DNA of 64,000 nucleotides, taken from assembly GCA_964474635.1 (NCBI GenBank), contig CAYYTT010000001.1, positions 15,930 to 79,929 of the forward strand, written 5' to 3'. Both the position numbers and the translations under genes were made by a program. Below the pieces are notes generated by a model. That model was not told the DNA's origin and did no database searches. It saw only the letters and a program-made list of their open reading frames with translations. Positions 3,001 to 19,805 of this stretch are shown here, in pieces (position 1 is the stretch's first letter; each line of letters opens with the position of its first letter). The DNA comes from an uncultured Alphaproteobacteria bacterium (GTDB lineage: Bacteria; Pseudomonadota; Alphaproteobacteria; JAJFIK01).

Positions 3001-4101
3001 AAAATGCGCATCGAGAGCTTTTTGGGCCCTGGCCCGATCATCCTCATGGAGGGCCGCTTCGAAATCGGCGAATTTGGGGGCAAGTAGGCGTTTCTCGATG
3101 CCGAGGAGACTGTCCACCCGCTGCGACCAGTAGAGACGATCCGGACGCACGTTCCAGTCCCAGATCCCAACCCCGGCGCCCATGCACAAGAGCCGGTAGC
3201 GATCCTCCGCGTCCTGCTGGCGCCGCCCGGCATCGGCCGCCGCCTCACCCGCCCGCTTTTGACGGGACCGGGCCTGCCAGGCCATGGCGCCTGCAAGGAC
3301 GGCCATGGCGGCGGCGAAGGCGGCGAGCGCACCGAGCCCGAAGGCAAGCTTGGCCGGGCTCCAATCGCCTGGCCTGTGGCGCACGCCGACGGTCCAAATG
3401 CTGTCATAGAAAGCGATACGGGCGAACAGGGCATCGCTTGACCGCCCGTTCTGGGGCACCGGCAAGGTCACGGTGCCGAAAATCGGCATACGGTCCTCAT
3501 AGACCGTCACATCGAACCGGTCCTTGAAGCCTGGAACGGCGACGGCCGTCGACAGATCCTCCGTGGCGATGGCGGCCGCCAGGAGCCCTTGGATCCGCCC
3601 CTGGATGACCACGGGCGCATAGACCCGCAAGCCCCGCCGGCCATTACCGAGATCCCCCGTCCTGGTGACCAGCGTCAAGGACCCGTCGAGCGGCGAGCGT
3701 GTCGCCGCGGCCCGCCGCTCCACGGCCGGGAAGACAAGACTGCTTGAGGCCGCGTCCGGTTCCCGGGTCCAGCGCAATTGCAGGCTCGGATCGATCCAGG
3801 CGATCCCGCTCAGGGCCGGCAGATCCTTCACCAGATCGAGGGCCACGGCGGGCGGGCGCACATCCACCGGTTCGGCGTTAAGACCCAGCCGGTCCGCGAG
3901 GCGCTCCACCGCATGGATGTCTTCCATCAGCCGGCCGCGCAGGGCGCCTGCGTAATCGGTGAGGGCCTGGCGCAGGGCACCGGGCCGGGGGCCGGCTTGC
4001 CCGGCGACCCATTGGGCCAGAATCACGCTGAGTATGAGCCCGGCAATCAGGGTGGCCAGGGACAACAGCAGGCTTGGCAGGAGGGTGCGTATCGACCTCA
4101 T
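1..4101 (-). CDS. Hybrid sensor histidine kinase with periplasmic sensor region, several PAS domains and a C-terminal receiver-like domain (partial; 3' end runs off the left window edge)
   Basis: Not in the ORF track because the frame stays open to base 1. Own minus-strand translation from ATG 4101-4099 gives MRSIRTLLPSLLLSLATLIAGLIL (TM1) and a second TM near 3270-3340. PAS-like cores: GIWDWNVRPDRLYWS (~3130-3175), GLWDIDLTTGDMRWSPR (~2225-2275), GVWDVDFIGN (~1885-1915). H-box FVSTVSHELRSPMTS (~1130-1177). HATPase motifs DKGPGIP and GGTGLGLSIAKAIVE (~580-720). Receiver-like ILLVEHDQ...DLVVLEPNLPDGYG (~260-430). Confidence 0.9.
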   Translation of the reverse strand, partial: MRSIRTLLPSLLLSLATLIAGLILSVILAQWVAGQAGPRPGALRQALTDYAGALRGRLMEDIHAVERLADRLGLNAEPVDVRPPAVALDLVKDLPALSGIAWIDPSLQLRWTREPDAASSSLVFPAVERRAAATRSPLDGSLTLVTRTGDLGNGRRGLRVYAPVVIQGRIQGLLAAAIATEDLSTAVAVPGFKDRFDVTVYEDRMPIFGTVTLPVPQNGRSSDALFARIAFYDSIWTVGVRHRPGDWSPAKLAFGLGALAAFAAAMAVLAGAMAWQARSRQKRAGEAAADAGRRQQDAEDRYRLLCMGAGVGIWDWNVRPDRLYWSQRVDSLLGIEKRLLAPKFADFEAALHEDDRARAQKALDAHFESDAPFDITVRLRCGTRAFQSFRLSGQAVYGADDRPVRMAGTLVPLAALGAAKGDAGQGTRAHEDAGLRDLALAAATATIVASNADDQPPVNDSTGDQPADGTHPTLDMIFDAVPTQIWIKDDTGRILRVNRAAARLIGKSVADVEGQLSTDLFPENGKGFVEEDQEVLRSGETKVHVLELPVEEKDESWFLRIERVPFTDPKTQRRFVVAMTMDVTQERRIERDLLESQERYELAIKGSGAGLWDIDLTTGDMRWSPRIYDMLQLDPETFSANLETLHGLMHPDDLPAVIKARKAHLEHGERYESVFRVRRADGAYVWIHSRGEALRTGDGKPLRMVGSLHDVSDAKRREVEWAAFVDASSDGVWDVDFIGNRLFISPRFWTILGHGDAQPTDDFSAWRSFLLEEDLPKVEAAMDRHIASKGKEPFSLEARFKHKNGSVVTVLSRGRVVDWGVDGKPARMLIMHTDLTAMREAEAGLLERDRRFATAVNGLSVGLYDWIDVTRDECWWSPLFFKLLGYEAGEIEPLVSTFRSLLHPDDVEPTFALVDTHLTKKTPFQIEYRVRHKTEGYRWFLGTGQAIWDQADKPKRMIGSIMDIHARKTADLMKSEFVSTVSHELRSPMTSVMGAVGLVRSGRLGAMTPQIQELLDIAHANGDRLIQLLNDILDMEKIEAGQIDFDMEVHALHPLISRACQEAEGSALERLIRLEQDLGADDPQVWIDADRFGQVMANLLSNAIKFSENETTVRIFTETRGTTVRVGVADKGPGIPAEYRPHVFNKFSQADGSDARRSGGTGLGLSIAKAIVETFAGTIGFETAEGHGTTFHVDLPLHAAPERVISPPQKAPPADALFTDKDGGAKILLVEHDQGIVRVFEQLIGDLGEVRAVSSRARAHAVLSTEHVDLVVLEPNLPDGYGLDLAERFCSGPSGAPALIIHASGTVPAAALPPGAKAFAKARISSADLRDVAREMLGLAGPATPAREPEASHGGAVDGPWPRPVQA

Positions 4102-4402
4102 TCCACGCTCCAGTGGACCGGTTGAGCCTCCAGGTTGGCCCAGTTCGGTCGAATTAACCACGAGTCGATGTGTCCATCATGCAAGCCCGGGCCGGCAAAG
4201 CCCCCAAAACACCGGGGTTTTGTTGCTTTCACCCCAACATTCACGGACAGTGACCACGTGGCGTAGGTGAACAAAAAATTCAGATAAGGCGTTGGTTTTG
4301 GGGCGTTCCCGAGAGAGTGACACGGCAAACGAGCAGCCGCGTGCAGGTGGTCCGGCCGCTGGGCGGCGCCGACCGCGCCGGGCCCGTTTCCGCACGCCTC
4401 GG

Positions 4403-6160
4403 ATGATCGCCATCCTTCTTCTGGCCCTTACGCCGCTTATCCCTGTGCCTGATCTTGGAGTGCTGACTCTCGGAGCGCCGGCCCTTGCGCAAACCGTGGG
4501 TCCCGGATCTCCAGTGCCGCCGGCCGCGCAGCCCCAAGACCCGCGCGAGCGCCTGCGCGTCCCCAGGCCACCCGATCCCCAGCCCGAGTTGAACATTCCC
4601 GCCTTCCGGGGCCTGATCCCGCCGGGCAGCGAAGTGGTGCAGGTCACCCTGGGCCGAGTCGTCTTCGAAGGCGCCACCGTCTTTGACGACACCGCCCTGG
4701 CGGCGCCGTTTCAGCCCCTTTTCGGCCAGCAGATCGCGCTTGCCCAGGTCTATGCCGCCGCCGCCGAGCTCCAGGCCCGGTATCGGGCAAAGGGGTATGT
4801 CCTGACACGGGTCGTGGTGCCGGCCCAACGCATCGACCGGGGCACCATACGCATCCGCGTGGTCGAAGGCTTCATCGATGAGGTGCTGATCGAGGGGGAA
4901 GTCGGATCGGCCCGCCGGCAGATTGAGCGGACGATGGCGCATCTGACGCGCCTGCGCCCCGTGCGCAACCGGGATCTTGAACGCTACCTCCTGCTCGCCA
5001 ACGACATTCCGGGCATCTCGGCGACGGGGGTGCTGCGGCCGGGCACGGGCGAAGCCGGGGCGACACAGCTTCTGGTCCGTGTACGGCGCAAACGGGCCGA
5101 CGGCTTTGTGACCTTCAACAACCGGGAATCGGAATTGACCGGCCCCCTTGCCGCAGCCGTGGGCGCCGGGGTCAACAGCCTGACCCGCCTCGGCGACCGC
5201 CTGGAGGGCCTTTACTTCGTGACGCTCGACAGCCAGGAGCCGACCCGCTTCACCTCCGGCAATCCCTTCGAGCAGAGTTTCGTCTTCGCGGCCTATGAGG
5301 CCCGCCTGACGGGTGAGGGCACGACCGCGCGCGTGGAGGCAAGCTATGGCGTCAGCCGGCCGGGCGCGCGCCTCGCGCCGCTCGACATTGAAAGCCGGGT
5401 CACTCGCTTCAAGGGCGAAGTCCGACATCCGGTCGTCCGTACCCGCGCAGCCAGCCTGTCGGCGGCCCTGTCGCTCGAATCGATCCTGGAGCGCACGGGC
5501 ATCGCCGGCAGTCTGATTGCCCGCGACCGGCTGACCGTCCTCGGCGTCGATTTGGAGGCGGAGCTTCGCGACACGCTGTTCCGTGTCGCGCGCAACACCT
5601 TCAGCCTGTCCCTGCGCCAGGGGCTGGAGATCCTGGGAGCGTCCTCGCCGGATGAGGGCCTGTCGACGCGGCCCGAGGGATCATCCGTCTACACCACCAT
5701 CGAGGCTTATCTGTCGCGCACCCAGTCCTTGAGCCCGCGCGTGGAACTGTTCGGGGAAGCCATTGGCCACTATGCCTCGCGCACGCTTTTGAGCCAGGCC
5801 GAATTCCGCATAGGCGGGGACCGTTTTGGCCGCGCGTTCGATCCCTCACAGCTTGCCGGGGAGCATGGTTTTGGTGTCGGCGCGGAACTGCGCTTCAACG
5901 GCTCCACGGGCTGGCGTTTCGTGCCCGGCTATCAACTCTACGCCTTTGGGGATGCCGCGCAGGTGCGCAACACCGACCGGGGTTTTGAGCCACGGGCATC
6001 CATCTGGTCGACGGGCGCCGGCATCCGGACCAATCTGCGCCCCTCCTCATGGACCGACATTCTTCTCGATCTGGAATATGCGCACGGGGAGAGCTTCGGC
6101 TCGGGCCCGGATCTCGAAACACAGGATCAGGCCTATGTGCGTGTCACCGCCCAGTTCTGA
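4403..6160 (+). CDS. Two-partner secretion outer-membrane transporter (TpsB; ShlB/FhaC/HecB family)
   Basis: ORF 4292..6160. Signal-like MIAILLLALTPLIPV...APALAQ begins at ATG 4403. ShlB-type POTRA block VTLGRVVFEGATVFDDTALAAPFQPLFGQQIALAQVYAAAAELQARYRAKGYVLTRVVVPAQRIDRGTIRIRVVEGFI. Beta-barrel-like C-terminus ends ...YVRVTAQF. Start 4292 versus 4403 is unresolved. Confidence 0.85.
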   Translation: MIAILLLALTPLIPVPDLGVLTLGAPALAQTVGPGSPVPPAAQPQDPRERLRVPRPPDPQPELNIPAFRGLIPPGSEVVQVTLGRVVFEGATVFDDTALAAPFQPLFGQQIALAQVYAAAAELQARYRAKGYVLTRVVVPAQRIDRGTIRIRVVEGFIDEVLIEGEVGSARRQIERTMAHLTRLRPVRNRDLERYLLLANDIPGISATGVLRPGTGEAGATQLLVRVRRKRADGFVTFNNRESELTGPLAAAVGAGVNSLTRLGDRLEGLYFVTLDSQEPTRFTSGNPFEQSFVFAAYEARLTGEGTTARVEASYGVSRPGARLAPLDIESRVTRFKGEVRHPVVRTRAASLSAALSLESILERTGIAGSLIARDRLTVLGVDLEAELRDTLFRVARNTFSLSLRQGLEILGASSPDEGLSTRPEGSSVYTTIEAYLSRTQSLSPRVELFGEAIGHYASRTLLSQAEFRIGGDRFGRAFDPSQLAGEHGFGVGAELRFNGSTGWRFVPGYQLYAFGDAAQVRNTDRGFEPRASIWSTGAGIRTNLRPSSWTDILLDLEYAHGESFGSGPDLETQDQAYVRVTAQF

Positions 6161-9100
6161 CCGGGCCCCGCCCCAAAGCGCGAAGCGGCTGCGCCTTTTC
6201 ACGGCCAGCGCTCTCGTCGGCGCGCTGGTGTCCCTGTCCGTGCCGGCCGAGGCCGGACCCACCGGCGGAACGGTCGTCGCCGGCGACGCCCTGATTTCAA
6301 CGCCCGGCGTGGGCACGACCTTAATCGAACAATCGAGCGACCGGGTCGTCATCGACTGGGACAGCTTTTCCATCGCCCCCGGAGAAATCACCCAGTTCGT
6401 ACAGGGCAGTCCGGATGCGGTCGCCCTCAATCGGGTGACGGGCGGAGCCTTGAGTGAAATCTTCGGTACCCTGAGCGCCGATGGCACCCTCTTTCTGGTG
6501 AACCCCGCCGGCATCTTGGTTGGCCAAGGCGGCATCGTGGACGTCCATGGGCTCGTCGCCAGCACGAGCGGCATCACGAACGAAAACTTCATGGCCGGAC
6601 GGTTCACCTTCGACCGGCCGTCGCAGGTGCCCGGTGCCAGCGTGATCAACCGCGGCACGATCTCCGTTAAGCAGGCTGGCATGGCCGCCCTGGTTGCCCC
6701 CGGGGTCGAAAATGCCGGCGTCATCGTAGCCGATCTTGGCCGGGCGGTCCTTGCCGGCGCGCAGCGTTTCACGGTCGATTTGTACGGGGACGGGCTCATC
6801 CAATTCGATGCCGGTCCGGCGGACGATGGGGACGGATCCGGCCAAGCCTTCAGCGCCGTGAACAACGGCACGATCCGCGCGGACGGCGGCCGTGTCCTGA
6901 TGACCACCGACGCGGCCGAGGCGCTACTGGGCTCGGTTGTGTCCATGGACGGGGTGATCGAAGCCCGCAGCGTATCAACCGAAAACGGAACCATCATCCT
7001 GGCCGGCGGCGAGAACGGCGCGGTCGAGGTTTCCGGCAGGCTTGACGCGCCCCGGGGCGCCATCTCGATCGCCGGAGATGCGGTGACCCTTGATCCGGAC
7101 GCATCGCTGCGCAGCGCTCCCGGGGGCGCAATCGCCATCGCGGCAGCGCGTCTCGACGTAACAGGCGATGGCGCGCTCGGCACCCTGGCCGCCGCGCCGC
7201 TCCAGGATGCGGTCGCCTCGGGCGGCAAGGTGACCCTCGCCGCGCAATCCGCGCTCACGATTGCCCAAGACGGCCTGCAGGTGAGCGACGACGGCCCCGC
7301 CGGCGCCCTGAGCCTTGAAGGCACGGCAGTCGCCATCGGCGGGCCGGTCGATTTGGCGGCCTCGGATCTCACAATCAGGGCCGACAGCCTTGCTCTTGAT
7401 GCGGACCTGACCGCTGCCACCATCCAGGTCGAGACGATCAGCGCCGGCCGGGATATTCGCCTCGGGTCCGGTGATGGCGCCCCGGCCGCCGGGCCCGCCC
7501 TTGCCTTTGACGATCTGACCCGCTTGATCACGCCGGCGCTGACGCTCAGGGCACCGCGGGGCACGGTACGCCTCGGGTCGCTCGACCTTGCCGGCGCAGG
7601 CTTCGGCGCCCTGACCGTGTCCGGGGGCGCTGTTCGTCTGTCCGGGGACATTGTTACCGGCGGACGCGATTTCACGGTGGATGGACCGGCTGTTCTCGTT
7701 GGCGATACCCGCCTCGTCACCGATGGCGGCGCGGCCCGGTTCGCCGGCTCCCTGGACAGCGCGGCGCAGATCACCAGCGCGGATCTGCCGTGGGCCTTGT
7801 CGGTGGAGGCGGGCCCCGGCGCGGCGGCCTTTGAGGACACCATCGGCGGCGAAGGTCCCCTTGCCGCCTTGAGCGTGCGGGCGGGCGACCTTGCCGCAGG
7901 CCCGGTTACAACGCTCGGCGCGATTGATCTGACCGGGATGGCGGGCACGCTCCTTGCCGGCGCGATCACAAGCCAGGAGGGTCCGGTCACGGTCGCGGGT
8001 CCCATCCGTCTGGCTGCGGATACATCCGTGAGCAGCGCCGCTGCGGTCCGTCTCGATCCGGTCATGGGTGGCGGGTTCGATCTCACCCTGGCGGCCTCGC
8101 CGAATGGTCCGATCACTCTGGCCGGCGGCTCAGGCCTTGGTGTTTTGAGTGTTGTGCAAGGGCAGACCTTTACTGCCGAGAGCGCGCTTACCGCGTCAGA
8201 GCTCTCCGTGAGCGGACTGACAGGTGCCGCATTGTTTTTTGGGTCCATCGCGGTGGACGGTGCCGGCCGGATCGAGGGGCCCGGCGGCGCGGTGTTCGAT
8301 GGGGGCCCGGACGGTACATTTCGCTTTGCCGGCGGGCTGACGGCCCTCGACGGACCGGTCAGCGCGCGCGGAACCCTCCTGGCCGGCGGCGGCGGTCTCA
8401 CACTGGCCGATTTCACGCCCGTCGGTGCCGCTCGGCTGGAAGGCTTGGGCGGTGCGGCCATCGACCTTGGGACGGTGTCCGCCGCGCCGAACGCCGCCCT
8501 GACCATCGACGCGGCCGTGCTGAGCGTGGAGGGCCCCGTCACCCTGCCCGATGGGACACTGACGGTGCTGCGAGCCCTGGAGGCACGTGTCACCGGCCCT
8601 GTCACGGCCGAGACCGTCCGCATCGCATCGAACGGCGGTACGGTTGTCCTTCTCGGTGCGCTTGAGACCGTTTCGGCCGACCTCGGCGGCGCCGCGCAAC
8701 TGCGCCTTGAAGCCCCCATTCGGGCGGACGCCCTGCGCCTGGCCGATCTCGGGTCCCTCGTCAGTACCGATCCCATCGCTGCGGGCACCCTCTCGCTTGA
8801 GACCATCGAGATGGCCATGCTCGGCGGGCCTTTGACCGCGGACAGCATGAGTGTGGACGCGCCGGGGGGCACCATTACCGTTCTTGAGACGCTCGATGCG
8901 GGACGACTCTCGGTCCTGGAGGCGGGCTCGGCACGGTTCGCGGGCCCTGTCATGGCGGGCGAAGTGGACCTTACGCCGTCGGCCGGGTCGGTGGTCTTCG
9001 ATGGCCCCCTCGCGGCGGACACGCTGACGACCGGGCCGGGGCCGTTTTCCCTGGACCTGATCGGCGGCGTGCGGATCACCGAGCCGGTTACCATCGCGAA

Positions 9101-11405
9101 CACGGGCCTGCTGACCCTCGGGAAGGATGCGGGGGCGATCTCACGCTTTGACGGCGGGCTAACGGCCACGGAGGGCCCGGCCGCCCTGTCCGGATCCATC
9201 GAGGCGCCGGGGGTCAGTCTCACCCTCGCCGCCGCGACACTGACGGGCGATACCGTCCTCGATGTGGCGGGGGGCGCAGCCTCCGGCGGCGGCCCCTCCA
9301 TTGCGCTGTCCACCCTTAACGGCGCCGGCTTTGACCTTGCTGTGCGCGGTGGACCGGACACCGATGTAACCTTGGGCGGGGCCTCGGCGCTCGGCGATCT
9401 TTCGGTTTCCCGGGCGCGCAGCCTCAGCCTGACCGGGCCCACGCAAGCCGCATCGCTTACCACCCAAGATGTGACGACGCGCATTGAGGCCATCGCCCCG
9501 CTGATGCTCGCCAGCCTGACCATCGGACCGGGCCCCGCCTCGGTCGGCCTGACCGGCGGAAGCGTCTCCGTGACCGGCCCCGCGCGGATCGAGGCATCCG
9601 GCGGCACCGCGATCGGACGCGATCCTCAGAGCACGGCCACATTCTCCGAAGGCCTGAGGGCGCAGGCCGCCCCGGTGACGGTGCACGGGCGCATGAGTGC
9701 CGGTGGCAGCGGCCTTGCGCTTTCCACCGTGCGCATTGCCGGCGACACTGTCCTTGAGGGCACTAACGGCGCCGCGATCTCCCTGGGCGACGTGGCGGCG
9801 GCCGATCGCGCGGCCGCCCCGGATGTGCGCCTGTCCGCGGACCGGATCACCGCCGGCGCCCTCACGCTCGGCGAAGCCAGCGCCGCCGTTGCGGTGATCG
9901 CGGGATCCCAAGCGTCGTTCGCAGGTGCTGTTTCGGCCGACAGCCTGGCCCTTGAGGCCGCCGATGGTGGGCGCATCGATTTCGCCGGCCCCATGACCGT
10001 CCGTACCATAACCATTTCAGAAGGGGCCTATGCCCTTAATCTGACGGGCGGCGCGTCCATCGAGGCGGCCGCGGTCTTTGCCAATAGCGGCGGCGTCACC
10101 CTTGGCGATAAAGGCGTCTCGCAGGAGGGGCCCGGTGACCGCTTTGTCTTCGCCGGCGGTCTCACCTCGACGGCGTCCACAACGACGGTGGCGGGCACCG
10201 TTGAAACCCGCGACGCGCCCCTGGCACTGGCGGCCGTGCGCCTTGCCGGCGACAGCACCCTGACAAGTGCCACCAACAGTGGCGGCGGCGCGGATATCTC
10301 CGTCAGCGGACCAGTGGACAGCGCCGACAGGCCGGCAGCCTTGACCGTCACCGCCGGAATGGAAGGCCATGTGGTCCTTGATGGCCCCGTTGGCCAGACC
10401 GCTCCCTTGCACACCCTTGAGGTCTCGGCCGGACGCATTGCCGCGCGAGCCTCACGCGCCGCCGGTGACATCACCTTGAGGGCACGGGACCAAGCCGGCC
10501 AACCGGGCACCGTCGTCCTGGCCCAAAATCTGGAGACCGCCGGCGGCGATATCCTCATCGACGGTGCCGTGACCATCTCGGGTCAGACAGTCCGGATCGA
10601 CACGACCGGAGACGGATCCCCGGGCGGCGCGGTGACGCTTGGCGCGCAGGACACGGACATCGTCTTTACAGATCCGGACGCAATTTTGACCGTCACAGCC
10701 GGCGACGACGTCACCCTGGCGCGACTTGGTACCACCGAAACAGGTCCTTCCCAGGTCGACGTCGTGGCCGCCGGTTCCCTTCGATCGGCGGGCGGCACTG
10801 TCGCCGCGGCGCTCAGTTTTGCCGCCGGTGCATTCGATGAAGACCCGGCCTTCCGTCCGGACCAGGACATCCGGCTCGACGGCGATCTGACCGTCGCCGG
10901 GCCTGTCCGCCTGGCGGCAACCGGCGATCTTGTGCTTGAGGACACCTTGAACGCAGGCACCTTGAGAATTCTCATCGACGGTATTGCCCGCACCGGGCCC
11001 GATGCCCGCGTCAATGTGGACGATCTGCTGTTCATCGGCTCCTTAAACGACGGGTCTGGCTCCTCCGAACTCATCGGCTCCATACGCGGCATCGATACCG
11101 GAGACGCGGCGGGGCTTGCCTTCCAGACCGCCCTCCCGCTCAACCCGGACTTCCTATTCAACGGATGCGTCGTCGGCGTGCGCTGCGGCCAGGACGACCG
11201 GGTGATCCGCGGCATCAATGTTTTTGCACTGACAGTCCAGCCGGTTACCCAGGACCCCGAGCCCGACGGCCAGCGGTTTTCCGATCTCGGCAATTTCGAA
11301 CTGTACCGCAGTCTGGGTCTGACCCGCTCCTGGAGCGGGGATGACAAGGAGGATGGGGACGAGGAGAACGGGGACGGGGAAGGGGCCGGAAATGGCGATG
11401 AGTGA
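6135..11405 (+). CDS. Two-partner secretion exoprotein (TpsA; filamentous haemagglutinin-like, N-terminal TPS domain)
   Basis: ORF 5826..11405; the likely start is ATG 6135 (MCVSPP...LVSLSVPAEA signal peptide). TPS-domain motifs: VVIDWDSFSIAPGEITQFVQ, ALNRVTGG and FLVNPAGILVG (NPNGI-like). The rest is ~1600 aa of Ala/Gly/Thr/Leu/Val/Asp-rich beta-helix-type sequence. It overlaps the tpsB stop by 26 nt. Confidence 0.9.
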   Translation: MCVSPPSSDRAPPQSAKRLRLFTASALVGALVSLSVPAEAGPTGGTVVAGDALISTPGVGTTLIEQSSDRVVIDWDSFSIAPGEITQFVQGSPDAVALNRVTGGALSEIFGTLSADGTLFLVNPAGILVGQGGIVDVHGLVASTSGITNENFMAGRFTFDRPSQVPGASVINRGTISVKQAGMAALVAPGVENAGVIVADLGRAVLAGAQRFTVDLYGDGLIQFDAGPADDGDGSGQAFSAVNNGTIRADGGRVLMTTDAAEALLGSVVSMDGVIEARSVSTENGTIILAGGENGAVEVSGRLDAPRGAISIAGDAVTLDPDASLRSAPGGAIAIAAARLDVTGDGALGTLAAAPLQDAVASGGKVTLAAQSALTIAQDGLQVSDDGPAGALSLEGTAVAIGGPVDLAASDLTIRADSLALDADLTAATIQVETISAGRDIRLGSGDGAPAAGPALAFDDLTRLITPALTLRAPRGTVRLGSLDLAGAGFGALTVSGGAVRLSGDIVTGGRDFTVDGPAVLVGDTRLVTDGGAARFAGSLDSAAQITSADLPWALSVEAGPGAAAFEDTIGGEGPLAALSVRAGDLAAGPVTTLGAIDLTGMAGTLLAGAITSQEGPVTVAGPIRLAADTSVSSAAAVRLDPVMGGGFDLTLAASPNGPITLAGGSGLGVLSVVQGQTFTAESALTASELSVSGLTGAALFFGSIAVDGAGRIEGPGGAVFDGGPDGTFRFAGGLTALDGPVSARGTLLAGGGGLTLADFTPVGAARLEGLGGAAIDLGTVSAAPNAALTIDAAVLSVEGPVTLPDGTLTVLRALEARVTGPVTAETVRIASNGGTVVLLGALETVSADLGGAAQLRLEAPIRADALRLADLGSLVSTDPIAAGTLSLETIEMAMLGGPLTADSMSVDAPGGTITVLETLDAGRLSVLEAGSARFAGPVMAGEVDLTPSAGSVVFDGPLAADTLTTGPGPFSLDLIGGVRITEPVTIANTGLLTLGKDAGAISRFDGGLTATEGPAALSGSIEAPGVSLTLAAATLTGDTVLDVAGGAASGGGPSIALSTLNGAGFDLAVRGGPDTDVTLGGASALGDLSVSRARSLSLTGPTQAASLTTQDVTTRIEAIAPLMLASLTIGPGPASVGLTGGSVSVTGPARIEASGGTAIGRDPQSTATFSEGLRAQAAPVTVHGRMSAGGSGLALSTVRIAGDTVLEGTNGAAISLGDVAAADRAAAPDVRLSADRITAGALTLGEASAAVAVIAGSQASFAGAVSADSLALEAADGGRIDFAGPMTVRTITISEGAYALNLTGGASIEAAAVFANSGGVTLGDKGVSQEGPGDRFVFAGGLTSTASTTTVAGTVETRDAPLALAAVRLAGDSTLTSATNSGGGADISVSGPVDSADRPAALTVTAGMEGHVVLDGPVGQTAPLHTLEVSAGRIAARASRAAGDITLRARDQAGQPGTVVLAQNLETAGGDILIDGAVTISGQTVRIDTTGDGSPGGAVTLGAQDTDIVFTDPDAILTVTAGDDVTLARLGTTETGPSQVDVVAAGSLRSAGGTVAAALSFAAGAFDEDPAFRPDQDIRLDGDLTVAGPVRLAATGDLVLEDTLNAGTLRILIDGIARTGPDARVNVDDLLFIGSLNDGSGSSELIGSIRGIDTGDAAGLAFQTALPLNPDFLFNGCVVGVRCGQDDRVIRGINVFALTVQPVTQDPEPDGQRFSDLGNFELYRSLGLTRSWSGDDKEDGDEENGDGEGAGNGDE

Positions 11406-14397
11406 TCTGCGCATTATGGGCCTTGCTTTCGCCGGCCTTGCGATCAGCGTGCTGACGGGCTGCTCGGGTGCACTCTCACCGGCGGATGGATCGCGCACGG
11501 CGGACAGCGACATCGTCGATCTTGGCGCCAATGCCCTGGGTGAGCGCTGCCGTCTGCGTGAAGACAAACACGTGGCCCGCGCCGCAGGGGAACGCCATTA
11601 TACGATCCAGTGCGGGGACTGGAGCACACCGAGTGCCCGCCTCGTCCAGGTTGCCGAGGACGCGGAAACGGGCCCGGGCTCAAGCCTGTGGCAGCGGGAG
11701 GTTACGAGCCGCCTTTTGTGCGGCGCCGAGGAAGACGCCCTGGTGCTGGGCGACCGCCCTGCCCGGCTGCATCGGTGCCGTCTGCGCCGGGGCGGCTGGC
11801 CCATGCTGGCCCTGATCGTTGGACTGCCCGACCAGGCCCTCCTGATGCAGACGATCCCCTCGGGCCTCGGGGTTGCCGAAGCCGCCCTCGCCCATATCGC
11901 CGGTCTGGAGGCCGGCGCCGTGGGCGACGCCGGGCCGCGGGGCACCCGGTCCCGTTCCATCGAGCTTCTCGAGCTGGCCCTGCGCGACCAGTTGTTTTCG
12001 GCCGGCGACATTCGGGCCTATGAAGAGCTACTCGACGTGGCCCAGTACTACAACAGCGTGGGCAATTTCATCGCGTCGGAACGCTTTTACCGGGATGCCT
12101 TAAGCATCCTGCGCAAAGTGGTGCCGCCGGACGATCCGGTCCTTGCCGACCCGTTGACCCGCCTCGCCCTCGCCTTGAGCAATCAGGGCAAGGTTACCGA
12201 AGCCGAAGCCCTGTTCAAAACCCTGGATGGCTTGAGCGCCGGCGCGCTTGACCCGCTCACGGTCCCGCGCCTGCGCATCGCCCGCGCCTCCCACGAGGTC
12301 AACCGCAATCGCTGCCGCGCCGCGTTGCGCGAGCTTCAGGCCGGCCAGGCCCGTCTTATCGAAATCGCCAACAGTGCCAGCGGGTCCGAAGTGCAGATCC
12401 TGGCCGGTGGCGCCGACGCGGCGGCGGTGGAACTGGCCCTTAGCGGCGCGCTCGAAAGCGCGATCATGCTGTGCCTCAACGATCTCGATGCGGCCGATAA
12501 GGCCGCCGACCGGGCCATCGCGATCCTGACGGACACGCCCCAGGCACCGCGCGACTGGCGGCCGGTGTTCCTGTCGCTGCGCGCGGAAATCCTGCGCCGG
12601 CGGCGCAGTCTGGACAGCGGCGAGGACGACCTGGAGCGGGCCTTGAGGGATCGCCGGGTGCTCTACGACCGCTCGCGCCTGGAGGGGCTCGACTATCTTT
12701 ATCTGGGCGGGCTCAACCGTGAGGCGGGCCGCCGGGACGACGCGCTGGAGAATTTTCGCCGGGGTGTCTCGGTGCTGCGCGAGACGAATGAGGGGGTCAC
12801 GCTCGACCAGGTCTTGCCCTTCCTGCGCCTCCTGAACGAGGAGGCAGGCCGGGACCCGGCCCGGGCACAGACGCTTCATGCGGAGATGTTCGCGGCTGGA
12901 CAAATCGTGCGTAACTCCCTCACGGCACGGACCATCGCGGCGACCTCCGCGCGTCTTGCCGCCGGCGATCAGGCTGTCTCCACCGTGATCCGCGATCTCC
13001 AGGAAGCGCGCCGGCGGATTGGCGATCTTAACCGGGCCATTGATGCGGCCCAGGCCCGCACAGACGCGGGCGGACGGGTCATTGAAATTGCGGCCATGAT
13101 CGAAGACCGGGACGCGGCGCGCCAGGAGGCAAGCGCCCTTGAAGAGGAGGTGCAGGCCGCGGCGCCGGCCTATAACCAACTCGTCAGCAGACCCCAGGAT
13201 CTGGTGAGCGCCCAGGCGGCCCTGGCCGCCGATGAGGCCATTCTCCAGGTTCTGATCGGCGAGACCTCCAGCCTTGCGTTTTTCGTCACCCGTGACACGG
13301 TCGAGCCCCATTTCATCGGCTTTGGTTCGGGCGAAGCCGCCTTCGCCGTAGCGAAATTGCGGGCAGGCCTGACCATCGGCACCGGCCAGCGCCTGGGCGC
13401 CTTTGATTTGAAACTTGCCCATGGCCTGTACCGCGCCATCCTCGGCCCCTTCGAGCAACGCCTTGCCACGGTTCGGCATTTGATCACTGTGCCAACGGGC
13501 CCACTCGCGAGCCTGCCCTTTGCCATTCTTGTAACGCAACGCCCGCAAGGGCGCGGCGTGCGCGCGGACACCTATCGCAAGACCGCCTGGCTCGGCACCG
13601 CCCATGCCATCTCCGTGGCCCCGTCAGTACGTTCTTTAGTCGATCTGCGCACCCTGCCCCAGGCTCCGAAACGCAGCCGTACACTGATCGGTTTTGGCGA
13701 TTTTCAGGGACCGCAAAATGCCCCAGCCGTCCCGATTACGCCGCTGTGCGAGTCCCGGGTCCAGTGGATGGCCCGCAATGCGCCGCCCCTGCCGGAAACA
13801 CGGGCCGAGCTTGAGGCCATCGCGAGGGGATTGCCGGACGGACAGACGGACCTGCGCCTTGGCGAGGCCTTCACGGAGGCGGCCGTCCAAGGGGCCGCCC
13901 TTGAAGACTACCGGATCGTTTATTTTGCGACCCATGGCCTGATGCCCGCCGATGTGGGCTGCCGGACCGAACCCGCCCTTGTCACATCGGGTTTTCGCCA
14001 GGATACGCCGGACCGGGACGGTCTTCTCACCTCAAGCGACGTGCTGGGCCTGCGGATGAATGCGGATCTGGTTGTCTTGTCGGCCTGTAACACCGGCGGC
14101 GGGGACGGCTCCGGCGGTGAGGGGCTGAGCGGTCTGGCTCGCAGCTTTTTTTATGCCGGTGCGCGCGGCATGCTGGTCAGCCACTGGTATGTGGAGAGCG
14201 CGGCGACCCAGCGGCTGATGACGGATGTCTTCGCACGCCTTGCCGACAATCCCGCCCTGGGCAGCGCCGAAGCGCTGCGCCAGGCCCAGGACGCTTTGTT
14301 TTTGCAAGAGCGCGGGTCTGCGATTGAAGCCCATCCAGCCTTCTGGGCGGCCTTCACGGTCGTGGGCGATGGGGCCCGGCCGGTGCGGGTGCGCTGA
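11392..14397 (+). CDS. TPR-repeat CHAT-domain (caspase-fold) protein, predicted lipoprotein
   Basis: ORF 11341..14397; likely start MAMSDLRIMGLAFAGLAISVLTGC, with lipobox L-T-G-C. Central TPR-like repeats (YYNSVGNFIASERFYRDALSILRK...). C-terminal CHAT hallmarks: IVYFATHGL (His) and DLVVLSACNTGGGDG (Cys), then LARSFFYAGARGMLVSHW and HPAFWAAFTVVGDG. The start lies 14 nt before the tpsA stop. Confidence 0.9.
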   Translation: MAMSDLRIMGLAFAGLAISVLTGCSGALSPADGSRTADSDIVDLGANALGERCRLREDKHVARAAGERHYTIQCGDWSTPSARLVQVAEDAETGPGSSLWQREVTSRLLCGAEEDALVLGDRPARLHRCRLRRGGWPMLALIVGLPDQALLMQTIPSGLGVAEAALAHIAGLEAGAVGDAGPRGTRSRSIELLELALRDQLFSAGDIRAYEELLDVAQYYNSVGNFIASERFYRDALSILRKVVPPDDPVLADPLTRLALALSNQGKVTEAEALFKTLDGLSAGALDPLTVPRLRIARASHEVNRNRCRAALRELQAGQARLIEIANSASGSEVQILAGGADAAAVELALSGALESAIMLCLNDLDAADKAADRAIAILTDTPQAPRDWRPVFLSLRAEILRRRRSLDSGEDDLERALRDRRVLYDRSRLEGLDYLYLGGLNREAGRRDDALENFRRGVSVLRETNEGVTLDQVLPFLRLLNEEAGRDPARAQTLHAEMFAAGQIVRNSLTARTIAATSARLAAGDQAVSTVIRDLQEARRRIGDLNRAIDAAQARTDAGGRVIEIAAMIEDRDAARQEASALEEEVQAAAPAYNQLVSRPQDLVSAQAALAADEAILQVLIGETSSLAFFVTRDTVEPHFIGFGSGEAAFAVAKLRAGLTIGTGQRLGAFDLKLAHGLYRAILGPFEQRLATVRHLITVPTGPLASLPFAILVTQRPQGRGVRADTYRKTAWLGTAHAISVAPSVRSLVDLRTLPQAPKRSRTLIGFGDFQGPQNAPAVPITPLCESRVQWMARNAPPLPETRAELEAIARGLPDGQTDLRLGEAFTEAAVQGAALEDYRIVYFATHGLMPADVGCRTEPALVTSGFRQDTPDRDGLLTSSDVLGLRMNADLVVLSACNTGGGDGSGGEGLSGLARSFFYAGARGMLVSHWYVESAATQRLMTDVFARLADNPALGSAEALRQAQDALFLQERGSAIEAHPAFWAAFTVVGDGARPVRVR

Positions 14398-14425
14398 CGA
14401 TCAAGCCTTTCGCGGTGCGAGATCG

Positions 14426-16516
14426 TTACTTGCTGGTCATGATGATGAAGGCTCCGGTTTCCCCGCCGCGCAGGCGCTCCAGATGGCCGGCAACGAGCCG
14501 GTCATCCGGACGCTGACGGGCAAGGTCCTCAAACGCCATGAGAGCCGCCGGACTTTCCCGGTCCAGCGCCTGGAAGGCCTCCCGGTAGGCCGCCTGATAG
14601 GGGCTGGCGGCATCGAGCGCATCGATGGGCTCATAGGTAATGAGGGCATCCTGCTTACCGTGGAGCACCAGGGTGCCCGCCGGGCGCACGGGCCGATCCG
14701 GGGCCGCGTCCACCGTGGCCTTTGAGAGCAGGGCCCGTGTGCCAAGCGCCTTGTTGGCCGCCTCCAGACGCGCGGCCGTGTTCACGACATTGCCGATGGC
14801 GGTGTAGTCGAAACGATCGCGGCCGCCAAAATTGCCGACGAATGCAGGCCCTGTATCAAGGCCCACCCGCGTGCGCCCGAACCGATAGCCCTGGCTCATC
14901 CAACGCGCACGGAAGGCCTCCCCGAACTCAACGAGCGCCGCCGCGCAGGCCACGGCGCGGCCGGCGTCGTCCTCGGAGGCTTCCGGCGCGCCGAAAAAGC
15001 ACATGGACCCATCGCCCAGAAATTTGTCGATCGTCCCGCCATGGGCAAGGATAATGCCGCCAAGCCCATCGAAGTAGTCATTGATGATCGTCCCGATAAG
15101 GTCCGGAGGCAGATACTCCGAGCTTGACGTGAATTGCTCGATATCGGTGAACATGACCGTGATCGTGCGCCGCTCACCGCCAAGCTTCAACCGGCTCGGA
15201 TCCCGGTCGAGGCGCGAGACGACCCCCGGCGGCACGTAGCGGGCAAAGGCCCGTCGGATCTGATTGCGCAAAAGGCGCTCCCGCCGGCCCACGAACGCGC
15301 TCGCGCCCGCCGCCGCAATCATGAAGGCCAGGACCGGCGTGACCAGCGGCACCATGACCTCCGCGCGGGCAAAGAGCGCGAAACACAGAACGCCAAACGC
15401 GCTCAGCACCAGCATCGACAAGAGGATCTTGAGCCACAGGGACAGCCGCGACATGGACAGCAGCATGCCCACCAGCGCCAGCGCGAGACCGATGGCCGCC
15501 TCCCCAGCCAGTCCGGGCTCCAGAATGCGCCGCCCGTCCAGGATCTGGGACAGGATATGGGCGTGGATTTCCACGCCGGGCATTTCCTCAACGCCGGGGA
15601 TGGCGGTCAGGGCAGTCCGGTGCCGGTCGATATCGACGAGCACGGGACCGATCAGGGCGATTTTGTCCTTGAAGAAAACGGGCGGCAGGATCGGCACTAC
15701 CTGGGCGTCGACTACCAGGAACGGTTTTTCGTCCGGACGCTGCGAATTAAAGCCACGCCACGCGATGCGGTAGCGCCGCTCCTTGGGCAGATCGACGCCC
15801 AGGCGATGGGCCACCGCCGCGCCCAGTTGAAATTGCGCTTTCTCGCCCTCGTCCCAACGGGGATAGGCATAACGCACCGTACCGTCCTGCCGGTCGCGCA
15901 GCAGCATGGCGTAACCGGGCGTCAGATCCCCGACAAACCAGGAGAGGACATCGGCCCGCTTGCCCGTCGTCCCAACATCGGCCCCGGCCCATCCGGGAAT
16001 GACGGGCGTCTTGACGGTGCGCATGACCTCGCGAAGCAATTCGTCCTTGCGCGGATCCGTTTCATTGTCGAGGACGAAATCGATGCCGATGGCCCGCGCC
16101 CCGGCCTCGTCAAGGCGTGTGATAATCTGTGCCAGGAGTTCTCGGTCGAATGGCAAACGGCAGGACAGGGCATCGAGAGTGTCGTCGGTCACGCCGATGA
16201 TGACGATGTTCTCGTCCTGGCGCGCGTCGGGCGCCGCGAGGAAACGAATGTCGCGGGTCCACTCGTCAACCCCCTTCAACACTTCGGCGATGTGCGTGAG
16301 TGCAAAGGGAACGCAGACGGCGGCAAGCAGGATCAGGCCGACCCATGCACCGACCGCGAGGCGCAGCGTGCGGCGCGGTTCCCGGTCAACGGGCGAGCTG
16401 CCCGCCCCGCCCTCGCCCCTTGCGTCCCCGCCCGGTTCTTGCTCGTCGGCCCCGACCATCTCCGCCCGCCTCCCCGCGTCTCGGCTCCAAGGACCGCCAG
16501 TATAGTGATCGGGCAA
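14426..16516 (-). CDS. CHASE2 sensor domain-containing class III adenylate/guanylate cyclase
   Basis: 696-aa ORF with an N-terminal TM. CHASE2-like IVIIGVTDDTLDALSCRLPFDRELLAQIITRLDEAGARAIGIDFVLD, followed by three TM helices. Cyclase core: ITVMFTDIEQFT, GTIDKFLGDGSMCFFGAP, RVGLDTGPAFVGNFG, FDYTAIGNVVNTAARLE. Start M1 (16516) versus M20 (16459) is unresolved. Confidence 0.9.
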   Translation of the reverse strand: MPDHYTGGPWSRDAGRRAEMVGADEQEPGGDARGEGGAGSSPVDREPRRTLRLAVGAWVGLILLAAVCVPFALTHIAEVLKGVDEWTRDIRFLAAPDARQDENIVIIGVTDDTLDALSCRLPFDRELLAQIITRLDEAGARAIGIDFVLDNETDPRKDELLREVMRTVKTPVIPGWAGADVGTTGKRADVLSWFVGDLTPGYAMLLRDRQDGTVRYAYPRWDEGEKAQFQLGAAVAHRLGVDLPKERRYRIAWRGFNSQRPDEKPFLVVDAQVVPILPPVFFKDKIALIGPVLVDIDRHRTALTAIPGVEEMPGVEIHAHILSQILDGRRILEPGLAGEAAIGLALALVGMLLSMSRLSLWLKILLSMLVLSAFGVLCFALFARAEVMVPLVTPVLAFMIAAAGASAFVGRRERLLRNQIRRAFARYVPPGVVSRLDRDPSRLKLGGERRTITVMFTDIEQFTSSSEYLPPDLIGTIINDYFDGLGGIILAHGGTIDKFLGDGSMCFFGAPEASEDDAGRAVACAAALVEFGEAFRARWMSQGYRFGRTRVGLDTGPAFVGNFGGRDRFDYTAIGNVVNTAARLEAANKALGTRALLSKATVDAAPDRPVRPAGTLVLHGKQDALITYEPIDALDAASPYQAAYREAFQALDRESPAALMAFEDLARQRPDDRLVAGHLERLRGGETGAFIIMTSK

Positions 16517-16603
16517 AGACTTTCGGAAATGCCCATTCTATGCTCGCGCGGAAGATGCAAAACGCGGCGCCGCGAACACCCCGTTGACCCATGGGAGGGA
16601 ACG

Positions 16604-17506
16604 ATGGCCGAAACGGTTTCACAGCCTTTGGCGGGCACACTCCGCGCGCTGCTCATGGCCGGCGGCCCTTCGATGGCCTTGGCGATGGCGATGGCCATGG
16701 CACCGGCACAAAGCGCTCTTGCCCTGCAGGACAGCCCGGCATCTGCCGCCGGGGCCGCCGACGAAGAGGCCCAAAGCCTTGTCGTGGTGCGCAGTTCGGC
16801 GCAGGCGCTCGGCGTTGGCGATGTCCTGCAAAGTGGACAGATCGTGCGCTTGGCGGAAAACGAGGAAATCGAAATCCTGTCCCAGCGCGGTGTGAGCGTC
16901 GTTTATCGCGGCCCCTTTGAAGGGCCGGTGAGCGGGCGCGGCGACGCGGTTGGACGGTCGCGCCTGAAGTTGCTGCGCGATGCGATTTTCGGTCTTGATG
17001 AGGGCACCCGCGTCATGGGCGGCACCCGCCAGCTGGAGCGCCCACCCCTGACGGACGCCGATAACGGGACGGACGACGCACCAGGCGATCCGGGTGAAGA
17101 AGACCCCGCGCCCCTGGGCCCGGCGGGAGAAGCAATCCTGATCGACCTGGCCCAAGGGGGAACCTGGTGCGCCGTCGATGGCGTCGATCTGTGGTTGATG
17201 CGTGCCGAATACGGCCGTGCCCGTGCACAGCTGAGCGATGGGACCGCGCGCGCGCCCTTGACCTGGAGCTATTTCGCGGAGGCCCTGCCCTGGCCAGACG
17301 CGGTGCCGCGCACGGACGGTGCCCGCTACTCGGTGACATTCGACAATGGGCCAACCTTGAGGTTCGACCTGCGTGTGGTCGCGCCCGCAGCCGATCCGGC
17401 GGGCACACTCATTGTACTGGCGCGCAGCGGCTGCCGGTCCCAAGTCGCCCGCGCCGCCGCCGCTCTTGAAGGCACGCCCGATAACGGCGACGGGCCAACC
17501 CGCTGA
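16604..17506 (+). CDS. Secreted hypothetical protein (signal peptide; short FecR-like stretch), divergent partner of the CHASE2 cyclase
   Basis: This is the 3' part of track ORF 15134..17506. ATG 16604 is preceded by GGGAGGGA. The N-terminus MAETVSQPLAGTLRALLMAGGPSMALAMAMAMAPAQSALA looks like a signal peptide. SLVVVRSSAQALGVGDVLQSGQIVRLAENEEIEILS resembles a FecR-type beta segment. The C-terminal half has two Cys. No family could be assigned by eye. Confidence 0.65.
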   Translation: MAETVSQPLAGTLRALLMAGGPSMALAMAMAMAPAQSALALQDSPASAAGAADEEAQSLVVVRSSAQALGVGDVLQSGQIVRLAENEEIEILSQRGVSVVYRGPFEGPVSGRGDAVGRSRLKLLRDAIFGLDEGTRVMGGTRQLERPPLTDADNGTDDAPGDPGEEDPAPLGPAGEAILIDLAQGGTWCAVDGVDLWLMRAEYGRARAQLSDGTARAPLTWSYFAEALPWPDAVPRTDGARYSVTFDNGPTLRFDLRVVAPAADPAGTLIVLARSGCRSQVARAAAALEGTPDNGDGPTR

Positions 17507-17592
17507 CTCTGACTTTGGCGCTGCCTCTGGCGCTGAGAGAGCACAGGCTCGCCTTTCTGCGAACTCGGGCCTTTGACCCGGCATAGAAGAGT

Positions 17593-18225: not shown

Positions 18226-18387
18226 GACATTTTCAAACCGAACGCCTGTCTGGTGGACGGCGCGGTGACATCGCTGCTGCCCGCTTCGCCGAACCGTATC
18301 CTCAGGCGGGCATGGCGCCCTGTCGAGCCCCAACCAAATGCGTGCCCGGCACGCGCCCACGTTCCTTTTGCGAGTCGGGAGGGCCCC

Positions 18388-19596: not shown

Positions 19597-19805
19597 CGGG
19601 GCTTGGCGGCCAGGGGGCGTCCTGTCGCGATCGCGTGACCACGCGTGCGCACGGCCCCTTTGATTTGGGTTTTTGGGCCGGGTTTTGTTTGTCATGGCGG
19701 GGCGACCTGCCTATCTGTGGGTGTCGCGGGTTGGGTGGATTGGTCCAGGATCCGGTGGGTGCATCGGACCTTGCGCAGACCGGCCAAGGAGGGAGGCGGC
19801 AAAGC

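Follow-up and report, generated by a model that had tools for sequence, protein, structure and literature searches.

CHASE2 is among the commonest extracytoplasmic sensor domains of bacteria, and we know of no ligand or other input established for it since the domain was described. The CHASE2 cases studied so far are, to our knowledge, all from Sinorhizobium meliloti, and they point to protein signals and an outer-membrane partner. What, then, lies upstream of CHASE2? The question is raised anew by a 64,000-nt stretch of DNA from an uncultured Alphaproteobacteria bacterium (contig CAYYTT010000001.1; hereafter the window), in which the gene for a CHASE2 receptor cyclase lies next to genes for a two-partner secretion (TPS) transporter, TpsB, its exoprotein, TpsA, a TPR-CHAT lipoprotein and a small secreted protein. 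We find that these five families very probably constitute a real, conserved module. On a composite reading of the evidence, to which we assign a probability of roughly 45%, the five genes of the window are the local copy of a widespread envelope signalling module, in which a signal would pass from the fibre to the protease, from there to the small protein and CHASE2, and finally to cyclic AMP (cAMP). The features of the locus are as follows.

4403–6160, plus strand: tpsB; ATG start; 585 residues; outer-membrane transporter of the Omp85/TpsB family (Pfam POTRA_2 1e-19, ShlB 1.5e-16)
6135–11405, plus strand: tpsA; ATG start; exoprotein of 1,756 residues with a signal peptide and an N-terminal TPS domain (about nt 6249–7031)
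11166–11186, plus strand: Cys loop of TpsA, FNGC1678-VVGVR-C1684
11274–11306, plus strand: C-terminal motif of TpsA, RFSDLGNFELY, the local form of F-S-x-x-G-N-E-x-L-W
11392–14397, plus strand: TPR-CHAT lipoprotein gene; ATG start; 1,001 residues (Pfam CHAT 1.1e-58; TPR_12/TPR_10)
11461–11463, plus strand: Cys24 of the CHAT protein lipobox, VLTGC
Residues 44–170 of the CHAT protein: β-rich N-domain with four invariant cysteines
Residues 188–500 (approximately) of the CHAT protein: TPR superhelix
Residues 510–597 of the CHAT protein: coiled coil
13411–14370, plus strand: CHAT domain (residues 674–993)
13933–13935 and 14086–14088, plus strand: predicted catalytic residues His848 and Cys899, respectively
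14426–16459, minus strand: gene for the CHASE2 receptor, a probable adenylate cyclase; 677 residues (696 if read from a TTG at 16516)
15464–16306, minus strand: CHASE2 domain (Pfam CHASE2 4e-30)
14708–15169, minus strand: class III cyclase domain (Pfam Guanylate_cyc 3e-14)
16604–17506, plus strand: gene for the small, predicted periplasmic partner protein; 300 residues; signal peptide; unannotated family

The first three genes are tightly packed. The tpsB and tpsA genes overlap by 26 nt, and the ATG of the CHAT gene lies 14 nt upstream of the tpsA stop codon, an overlap from which tpsA and the CHAT gene are predicted to be translationally coupled. The CHAT and cyclase genes are convergent across a gap of 28 bp (14398–14425). 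A preliminary description of this DNA had given these coordinates and overlaps, together with the lipobox VLTGC and the motifs YFATHG and LSACNTGGG, all of which hold; its domain calls (TPS, POTRA_2 with ShlB, TPR with CHAT, and CHASE2 with a class III cyclase) are every one upheld by Pfam profile searches. It had also placed an 87-bp divergent region between the cyclase and small genes. In an independent public gene call, however, the cyclase starts at the ATG at 16459 (677 residues) and not at the TTG at 16516, so that the divergent spacer measures 144 bp. The 585-residue TpsB call is likewise present in a public protein collection, as an independent call.

Whether this grouping means anything beyond the window depends on its recurrence. 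We scanned an alignment of CHAT orthologues against one genome per species (185,579 species) and kept the best 80 loci, which are not an unbiased sample. The loci (L numbers below) were annotated from six-frame open reading frames (ORFs) with 10-kb flanks, using hidden Markov models (HMMs) made from the proteins of the window, Niveispirillum, Sphingobium and Azospirillum, with 3–4 sequences each; Pfam agreed with these custom calls in two loci (L024 and L017). Many of the loci are contigs of metagenome-assembled genomes (MAGs) with frameshifts or shortened flanks. Among the 37 loci whose CHAT protein has the N-domain, 18 carry both the small gene and the cyclase directly beside CHAT, 20 a cyclase, 19 tpsB and at least 24 a TPS gene of either kind. 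The other 43 loci, mostly from Bradyrhizobium and its relatives, encode CHAT proteins without the N-domain; none carries the small gene with the cyclase, four carry a cyclase and two any TPS gene. TpsA is under-counted because many giant ORFs run beyond the 10-kb flank or the contig end, leaving the TPS domain out of reach. Their C-termini nonetheless lie at the CHAT start, for example in L013 (3,315 residues), L023, L032, L048 and L049. Indeed, in the window, in L001, L004, L005 and L008 and in more than 15 of the scanned loci, the CHAT gene begins within or immediately after the end of a giant ORF; L001–3 (CHAT 35% identical to that of the window), L004 (72%) and L005 (27%) each have the CHAT gene at the end of a giant upstream gene, which in L005 encodes a 3,463-residue TPS protein.

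Carriers include Sphingomonadaceae, Tagaea, Rhizomicrobium, Phenylobacterium, Acetobacteraceae, Burkholderiaceae and other Betaproteobacteria. A megaplasmid of Niveispirillum cyanobacteriorum carries the set as a tight, co-directional cluster, TpsB–TpsA–CHAT–small–cyclase. Plasmid pMSHV of Sphingobium herbicidovorans has, again all co-directional, genes for a Crp/Fnr protein, CHAT, CHASE2, a ‘hypothetical’ protein, ShlB and a 2,092-residue protein; the hypothetical protein is a homologue of the 300-residue protein of the window, and the 2,092-residue protein is TpsA. Azospirillum oryzae has a reduced set of a small-like protein, the cyclase and ShlB. In a neighbour-joining tree of 34 full-length CHAT orthologues (midpoint-rooted, no support values), 18 form a large clade, of which 17 have both the small gene and the cyclase and one (L021) the small gene with no cyclase detected. 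The usual order in this clade is [TpsB-]TpsA–CHAT–small–cyclase[-TpsB]. Sphingobium, with the order CHAT–cyclase–small–TpsB–TpsA, is on a third branch. At least three CHAT lineages thus show the association, in three arrangements and in both Alpha- and Betaproteobacteria. The preliminary description had surmised that these genes form one envelope module and had proposed counting how often TpsA, TpsB, CHAT and CHASE2 genes lie within 10 kb of each other; the linkage is found outside this genome, and the same five families stand side by side in three gene orders and three CHAT lineages. One departure from the usual overlap was seen in a Candidatus Thiosymbion MAG (L027, 8855–9922), in which a 356-residue ORF rich in LEQG repeats separates the TpsA and CHAT genes.

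TpsB and TpsA have the hallmarks of a bona fide type Vb (two-partner secretion) pair, with export predicted: TpsB combines POTRA_2 and ShlB domains, TpsA combines a signal peptide with a TPS/NPXG-type domain (Pfam TPS 8.5e-32; NCBIfam TIGR01901 adhes_NPXG 5e-19), and the two genes adjoin and overlap. TpsA is rich in Ala, Gly, Thr and Val, and the mature protein holds just two cysteines, C1678 and C1684 (FNGCVVGVRCG); RFSDLGNFELY lies 30 residues past this loop and an acidic tail follows. Both elements recur next to CHAT genes. An N-G-C-x5-8-C loop is present in 11 other giant ORFs upstream of or beside CHAT genes, 44–139 residues from the C-terminus, and a terminal or near-terminal F-S-x-x-G-N-E-x-L-W is found in most CHAT-linked giant proteins (FSSWGNEALWQ, FGSFGNEELWG, GSGNEEIW and similar). 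Broadly, a Cys-loop class of TpsA goes with TpsB–TpsA–CHAT ‘trio’ loci and a Cys-free class ending in ...FSSWGNEALW goes with cyclase-type operons. Neither the Cys loop nor the GNExLW motif is present in the TpsA of Thalassospira (L007), the single one examined without a CHAT link. A sequence scan of the window TpsA found no VENN motif and no TAAG motif. We considered a contact-dependent inhibition system (CdiA/CdiB) and rejected it, as TpsA lacks VENN and the next gene, which overlaps tpsA, encodes a CHAT protein.

The third gene product is best described as an exported TPR-CHAT protease of caspase fold with an intact His/Cys dyad, for which proteolysis is predicted. His848 (YFATHG) and Cys899 (LSACNTGGG) are invariant across seven orthologues, and all CHAT orthologues with a readable N-terminus carry an export signal, a lipobox in about 16 and an AxA-type signal peptide in the rest. 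The mature proteins begin LGxNLxGExC, and a β-rich domain of about 130 residues with four invariant cysteines follows; it is exactly this domain that the partner-less CHAT homologues lack. An AlphaFold2 model of the window protein (mean predicted local distance difference test score, pLDDT, 81; predicted TM-score 0.78) comprises the N-domain, the TPR superhelix, a long coiled coil and the CHAT fold; the fold of the N-domain (pLDDT 75–89) comes from a shallow alignment of seven proteins. The best Foldseek match in the PDB is the periplasmic TPR-CHAT region of DdvA (E 1.3e-11), followed by the TPR-CHAT protein of Craspase (Csx29) and separase. These three matches span E values from 1e-11 to 1e-9 with low global TM-scores (0.23–0.38), because the domain orientations differ. 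TPR domains are typically peptide-binding. Outside the module, plasmids of 82 kb in Pseudosulfitobacter pseudonitzschiae (L097; 47 near-identical records of this plasmid type) encode a 529-residue CHAT protein without the N-domain, whose gene overlaps that of a 478-residue hypothetical protein; they also carry a separate caspase-family gene and have no TPS or CHASE2 partner.

The fourth gene product has an N-terminal transmembrane helix, the CHASE2 domain, about three further transmembrane helices and the cyclase domain, with hydrophobic segments at residues 30–62 and 312–391 of the 677-residue form. The catalytic motifs FTDIEQFT, IDKFLGDG and RFDYTAIGNVVNTAAR supply two metal-binding aspartates, an Asn/Arg pair and a Lys/Asp specificity pair. 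The Lys/Asp pair is typical of adenylate cyclases, and the catalytically complete cyclase domain of this CHASE2 receptor is therefore probably that of an adenylate cyclase. Among orthologues the second specificity position varies (E, S, N or T), and in a few of them Gln replaces Lys. A gene for a cyclic nucleotide monophosphate (cNMP)-binding protein adjoins the cyclase gene in at least 12 module loci, as follows.

Directly downstream of the CHASE2 cyclase in L013, L014, L022, L024 (15623–17104), L044 and L076, all in one CHAT sub-clade: MscS-like channel with a C-terminal cNMP-binding domain
Same position in L031: Pkinase–cNMP_binding protein
Beside the cyclase in L019 and, per annotation, in Sphingobium: Crp with a helix-turn-helix domain
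L008 (two), L016 and L018: cNMP-binding proteins of other or unknown type

The MscS-like channels may represent a cNMP-gated channel output. Since these loci come with their own second-messenger receptor, we argue that the cyclase is the output of a pathway running from outside to inside.

The fifth gene product, predicted from its sequence to be periplasmic, is conserved and belongs to a large family without annotation. Profile searches with HMMER of 1.84 billion representative proteins returned 2,127 clusters at E ≤ 1e-3 and 1,472 at E ≤ 1e-10. The mature N-terminus is conserved (LVVVEARGxxLKPG...), and an AlphaFold2 model (pLDDT 77.6) shows an N-terminal β domain, a helix, a disordered acidic linker and a β-sandwich with two helices. 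From family alignments and the model, Cys189 and Cys277 are invariant, as are G139 and R142, which lie inside the low-confidence linker. The small protein and 39 relatives have no Pfam match even at E ≤ 1, the window protein has no NCBIfam match, and its model has no PDB fold match at E < 1e-3, with only generic β-sandwich matches above that value (E > 1e-3). The preliminary description had guessed at a FecR protein (PF04773), an identity that we discard, as none of the 40 family members matches a FecR model of Pfam or NCBIfam and the fold is not FecR-like. The small gene adjoins a CHASE2 cyclase gene in the 18 CHAT loci, in L092 and in L090.

Some members of the family occur in other forms and settings. 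In Azospirillum ramasamyi (L090, NZ_CP029832.1, 12745–18871), a fusion of a small-family domain with DUF4384 precedes a CHASE2 cyclase, after which comes a 904-residue protein that combines Peptidase_C14 (caspase), Big_9, SH3 and FGE-sulfatase domains, amid genes for Crp/Fnr, OmpA and a CsgG-like DUF4384 protein; the small–cyclase pair is therefore linked to two different families of caspase-fold protease. A sub-family of about 224 residues in Sphingomonas flavescens (L094, CP133016.1, 7114–10675) and L096 matches about one-third of the window protein; it comes after TelA, a 246-residue protein and a 639-residue protein without a Pfam match, with no CHASE2 cyclase. In four members of about 460 residues (P0124, P0130, P0140 and P0147) the profile matched in 3–4 separate stretches, which suggests internally duplicated or extended versions.

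Taken together, these features would be compatible with the following relay. TpsB would export the TpsA fibre, whose C-terminal tail (the Cys loop and GNExLW) would stay within reach of the TPR-CHAT protein, periplasmic or anchored in the outer membrane, and be bound or cleaved by it, as in the LapG/CdrA pair. The activity or occupancy of the protease would then be relayed through the small protein, one possibility being cleavage at the invariant Arg in its disordered linker; separase-type CHAT enzymes cleave after Arg within unstructured motifs (PMC11506125). CHASE2 would respond by switching on cAMP synthesis, and cNMP-binding effectors would read the cAMP, elsewhere Crp, MscS-like channels or a kinase and here presumably proteins encoded outside the window. 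Judged by the lipobox, the signal peptides and the invariant Cys pairs, all the parts concerned are predicted to be extracytoplasmic. A related proposal, which we regard as doubtful, is that the periplasmic caspase-fold protease is the element upstream of CHASE2: TPR-CHAT would read the fibre tail and cleave the small protein or the fibre, making or removing a CHASE2 ligand, and surface contact or damage would thereby be turned into cAMP. If true, it would add a new class of proteolytic signalling across the envelope and give CHASE2 its first defined input. The module offers a conserved and compact candidate set upstream of CHASE2 (a fibre, a transporter, a protease and a new periplasmic family of about 2,000 clusters) and, in its relatives, readouts of its own (Crp and cNMP-gated MscS-like channels), and so makes the question of CHASE2 input directly testable.

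The surroundings of the five genes bear on how far this proposal applies to the window itself.

17593–22071: block downstream of the small gene, comprising DUF6491 (minus strand), PALP/ACT (plus strand), DAO (plus strand) and Na_Ca_ex (plus strand) genes
1–4101, minus strand: hybrid histidine kinase gene, which starts at 4101 and leaves the window at its left end; more than 1,367 residues

Several observations weigh against the relay, and many of them suit another explanation, which we hold to be unlikely: that the locus contains two independent neighbours, a TpsB–TpsA–CHAT trio concerned with fibre maturation or release only and a separate small/CHASE2 sensor for some other cue, whose adjacency here is meaningless. 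The CHAT and cyclase genes are convergent in this genome and hence cannot be co-transcribed. In the tree, the window CHAT protein and that of L004 fall outside the large clade, among trio loci without a cyclase. L004, which has the closest CHAT protein, has an AMP-binding gene downstream and no cyclase, and none of L001–3, L004 and L005 has a cyclase downstream of CHAT. The cyclase and small genes, for their part, are syntenic with those of a CHAT-less relative: in L092 (a MAG contig) the divergent cyclase and small genes are followed by DUF6491, PALP, DAO and Na_Ca_ex (10950–15437), as in the window (identities of 61% for the cyclase, 46% for the small protein, 54% for DUF6491 and 87% for the ilvA-like PALP protein), and a PQQ-repeat gene occupies the place of CHAT. 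Because the genes are convergent and this CHAT-less relative shares the cyclase–small context, the adjacency of CHAT and cyclase here looks secondary: in the window lineage a trio-type TpsB–TpsA–CHAT unit and a cyclase–small unit appear to have been juxtaposed on opposite strands. Each half also occurs by itself elsewhere, as trios without a cyclase (L005, L020, L027, L036 and L075) and as cyclase–small pairs without CHAT (L092, and L006, which has ShlB only); the existence of such trios means that neither half is obligatory for the other. The cyclase-type loci L016, L018 and L078 have no TpsA within 10 kb, and no gene for a cNMP-binding or Crp-family protein was found anywhere in the 64-kb window. 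Moreover, we infer every functional step that goes past gene linkage, domain identities, export signals and motifs, and R142 as a cleavage site is a guess.

The view of two independent units is nevertheless disfavoured, because at least 18 loci have a tight, often overlapping linkage, in three CHAT lineages and in different orders, which is hard to explain without functional coupling. In addition, the MAG that contains L092 has, on another contig (L019), a TpsB..CHAT locus together with Crp and a paralogous CHASE2 cyclase of its own, and A. ramasamyi has a different caspase-fold protease at the same place beside its small–cyclase pair. The secondary juxtaposition in the window weakens the local argument from co-transcription, but not the general association, and is itself a further instance of the two units converging.

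A quite unlikely alternative runs from inside to outside, in the style of LapD–LapG. CHASE2 and the small protein would hold or free the CHAT protease and so set whether TpsA is retained on TpsB or shed, with the cyclase domain coupling to, or reporting, the cytoplasmic state. All the partners are predicted to be periplasmic, TpsA has a single C-terminal Cys pair, and CdrA, CdrB, LapG and LapD offer the analogy of a cysteine-hooked type Vb adhesin cut by a periplasmic Cys protease that is governed by a cyclic nucleotide (PMC7616799, PMC4694147). However, the CHAT protease is unrelated to LapG and TAAG is absent from TpsA; on the cytoplasmic side there is a complete cyclase domain, an output enzyme rather than a nucleotide receptor; and the separate cNMP-binding effector genes beside the cyclase in at least 12 loci argue for the direction from sensor to messenger.

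Perception through the outer membrane, as with NsrA, is a further and very unlikely alternative, in which the TpsB barrel would serve mainly as receptor or conduit, passing an external and possibly proteinaceous signal to the small protein and CHASE2, and TpsA and CHAT would be accessory. It draws on S. meliloti, in which perception by a CHASE2 cyclase needs an outer-membrane β-barrel protein (PMC7529298, PMC13001267). The best plasmid matches to the window TpsB are Azospirillum ShlB genes preceded directly by genes for a small-like protein and a cyclase of CHASE2 type and accompanied by neither TpsA nor CHAT, and tpsB follows the cyclase in many operon-type loci (L017, L023, L025, L026, L032 and L034). 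The window tpsB, by contrast, overlaps tpsA in the classical TPS arrangement, and this alternative leaves both the coupling of TpsA to CHAT and the C-terminal motif unexplained. NsrA itself is a protein of about 1,200 residues with its barrel at residues 600–1200 (PMC7529298). Homology of NsrA to TpsB is unsupported, because Sinorhizobium plasmids give essentially no tblastn match to the window TpsB; the genus is not among the organisms with at least three plasmid records matching TpsB, yet 168 Sinorhizobium records match the cyclase, a comparison that reaches NsrA only indirectly.

An anti-phage or programmed-death system akin to Craspase, Pycsar or CBASS can be largely discounted: the cyclase domain matches PADLOC PycC models (7e-26), CHAT proteases occur in type III-E CRISPR systems, DdvA controls a defence island (PMC11506125) and a cyanobacterial CHAT/CHASE2/DUF928 cluster adjoins a TIR gene, but the PycC matches cover the generic class III cyclase domain only, the other four proteins have no PADLOC match, the protease, small protein and sensor domain are all predicted to be extracytoplasmic, the neighbouring effectors are Crp, channel or kinase proteins rather than Pycsar effectors, and the partner is a TPS exoprotein.

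Two neighbours of the locus were considered as members of the module and rejected. DUF6491 stands beside the cyclase–small pair only in the window's own lineage. The hybrid kinase, which has an N-terminal transmembrane–periplasmic–transmembrane region, four PAS_3 domains, HisKA, HATPase_c and a weak REC domain, is divergent from tpsB, as the preliminary description had it, across 301 bp; its conservation with the module did not hold up, there being no orthologue at any module locus but only generic matches to the kinase core. A scan of 3900–17800 for sigma-70 promoters and terminators gave nothing exceeding background. The 28 bp that separate the CHAT gene from the cyclase gene (CGATCAAGCCTTTCGCGGTGCGAGATCG) have inverted ends of 5 nt, and the terminator scan called nothing there. 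Clr-box-like palindromes (TGTT-N8-AACA, at most one mismatch) number 11 in the whole window compared with 7.0 ± 2.7 expected, which is not significant; one, with one mismatch, lies at 4224–4239 (TGCTTTCACCCCAACA) in the region between the kinase gene and tpsB.

A link between CHAT and CHASE2 also exists in cyanobacteria, which the preliminary description had mentioned and which is seen on two plasmids. In Calothrix sp. 336/3 (L098, 8737–16280), a 1,415-residue protein fuses POTRA/POTRA_2 (ShlB-type), TPR and CHAT domains, and genes for a DUF928 protein, a stand-alone CHASE2 protein and a TIR-domain protein run convergently towards its gene. In Tolypothrix sp. PCC 7601 (L099, 1750–16971), an 819-residue fusion joins a weak CHAT match to CHASE2 and is followed by genes for a 222-residue unannotated protein, three CHAT proteins and a caspase-family protein. 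Like the module, these clusters join CHAT or caspase domains with CHASE2; unlike it, they have no cyclase domain and no TpsA, and their DUF928 protein is unrelated to the small protein. Kinship of the small protein with DUF928 or with the 222-residue Tolypothrix neighbour was tried and rejected (hhalign probability 0.2%). In the cyanobacterial CHASE2 fusions, CHASE2 is probably the sensor of a cytoplasmic protease. In print, links between caspase-fold domains and CHASE2 have been noted only as fusions (PMC2853523, PMC8195603). Our full-text search of the literature found no description of the module and no paper joining CHASE2 with a CHAT domain or a CHAT domain with hemagglutinin, and CHASE2 with hemagglutinin only on an unrelated topic. 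The earlier remark that no such system had been described experimentally thus stands for this module in the literature searched; it does not extend to the CyaD1/CyaD2/CyaK–NsrA–Clr system of S. meliloti or to DdvA, both of which have been studied experimentally.

Comparison with known systems finds four that each resemble the module in part of its logic. In Bordetella, the TpsA protein FhaB, secreted with FhaC, is matured at its C-terminal end by a dedicated lipoprotein protease, SphB1. SphB1, however, is a subtilisin-type autotransporter that is not known to be translationally coupled to fhaB or to involve a cyclase sensor. DdvA is, as far as we know, the sole characterised periplasmic TPR-CHAT protein. 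In this anti-sigma factor of Myxococcus xanthus, the TPR-CHAT region has been proposed to be a signal-activated protease that starts trans-envelope signalling (PMC11506125). Of the structures compared, it matches the modelled window protease best. DdvA differs in being one polypeptide with a cytoplasmic anti-sigma domain and a transmembrane helix, whereas in the window the protease would be a separate lipoprotein with the output on the cyclase protein. Furthermore, DdvA is not known to have a TPS partner, and the β-rich four-Cys N-domain is specific to the CHAT family of the window. If the proposed relay is true, it would give periplasmic CHAT proteases a physiological role besides that of DdvA.

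In Pseudomonas aeruginosa, the type Vb adhesin CdrA is held through its C-terminus by a ‘cysteine hook’ in CdrB and freed by the periplasmic cysteine protease LapG, which is controlled by an inner-membrane protein with a tie to cyclic-nucleotide signalling (PMC7616799, PMC4694147). The window resembles this system in that TpsA has one C-terminal Cys pair and its protease gene is predicted to be translationally coupled. In contrast, the protease of the window is TPR-CHAT and not LapG, the membrane partner would make a cNMP instead of binding cyclic di-GMP, and TpsA has no TAAG. For these reasons we rejected release control of the LapG/LapD type, which the module resembles only in its logic and in having a C-terminal Cys pair. 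Signalling probably runs in the opposite direction to that of LapG/LapD. The TpsA of the module would, if the relay is true, be a second and mechanistically distinct protease-controlled type Vb fibre after CdrA/LapG.

The nearest parallel on the sensor side is S. meliloti, with the CHASE2 cyclases CyaD1, CyaD2 and CyaK, the outer-membrane protein NsrA and the Crp-type regulator Clr; clr adjoins cyaD1, and the periplasmic proteins SMc02177/8 are encoded alongside (PMC5498481, PMC7529298, PMC13001267). Both systems have inner-membrane CHASE2 receptor cyclases, a Crp or cNMP-binding gene beside the cyclase (in the module, in relatives only) and periplasmic proteins of unknown function encoded alongside. 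A tblastn search with the window CHASE2 domain does not reach the S. meliloti cyclases, which are too distant. No CHAT protein or TpsA fibre has been described there, and SMc02177 is of FecR type whereas the small protein of the window has no FecR signature. All the components save the small protein are members of known families, and there are precedents for every part of the logic, but the module belongs to none of the four systems; what it adds is a testable CHASE2 input, a suggested role for periplasmic CHAT proteases and a large unannotated family of predicted periplasmic proteins.

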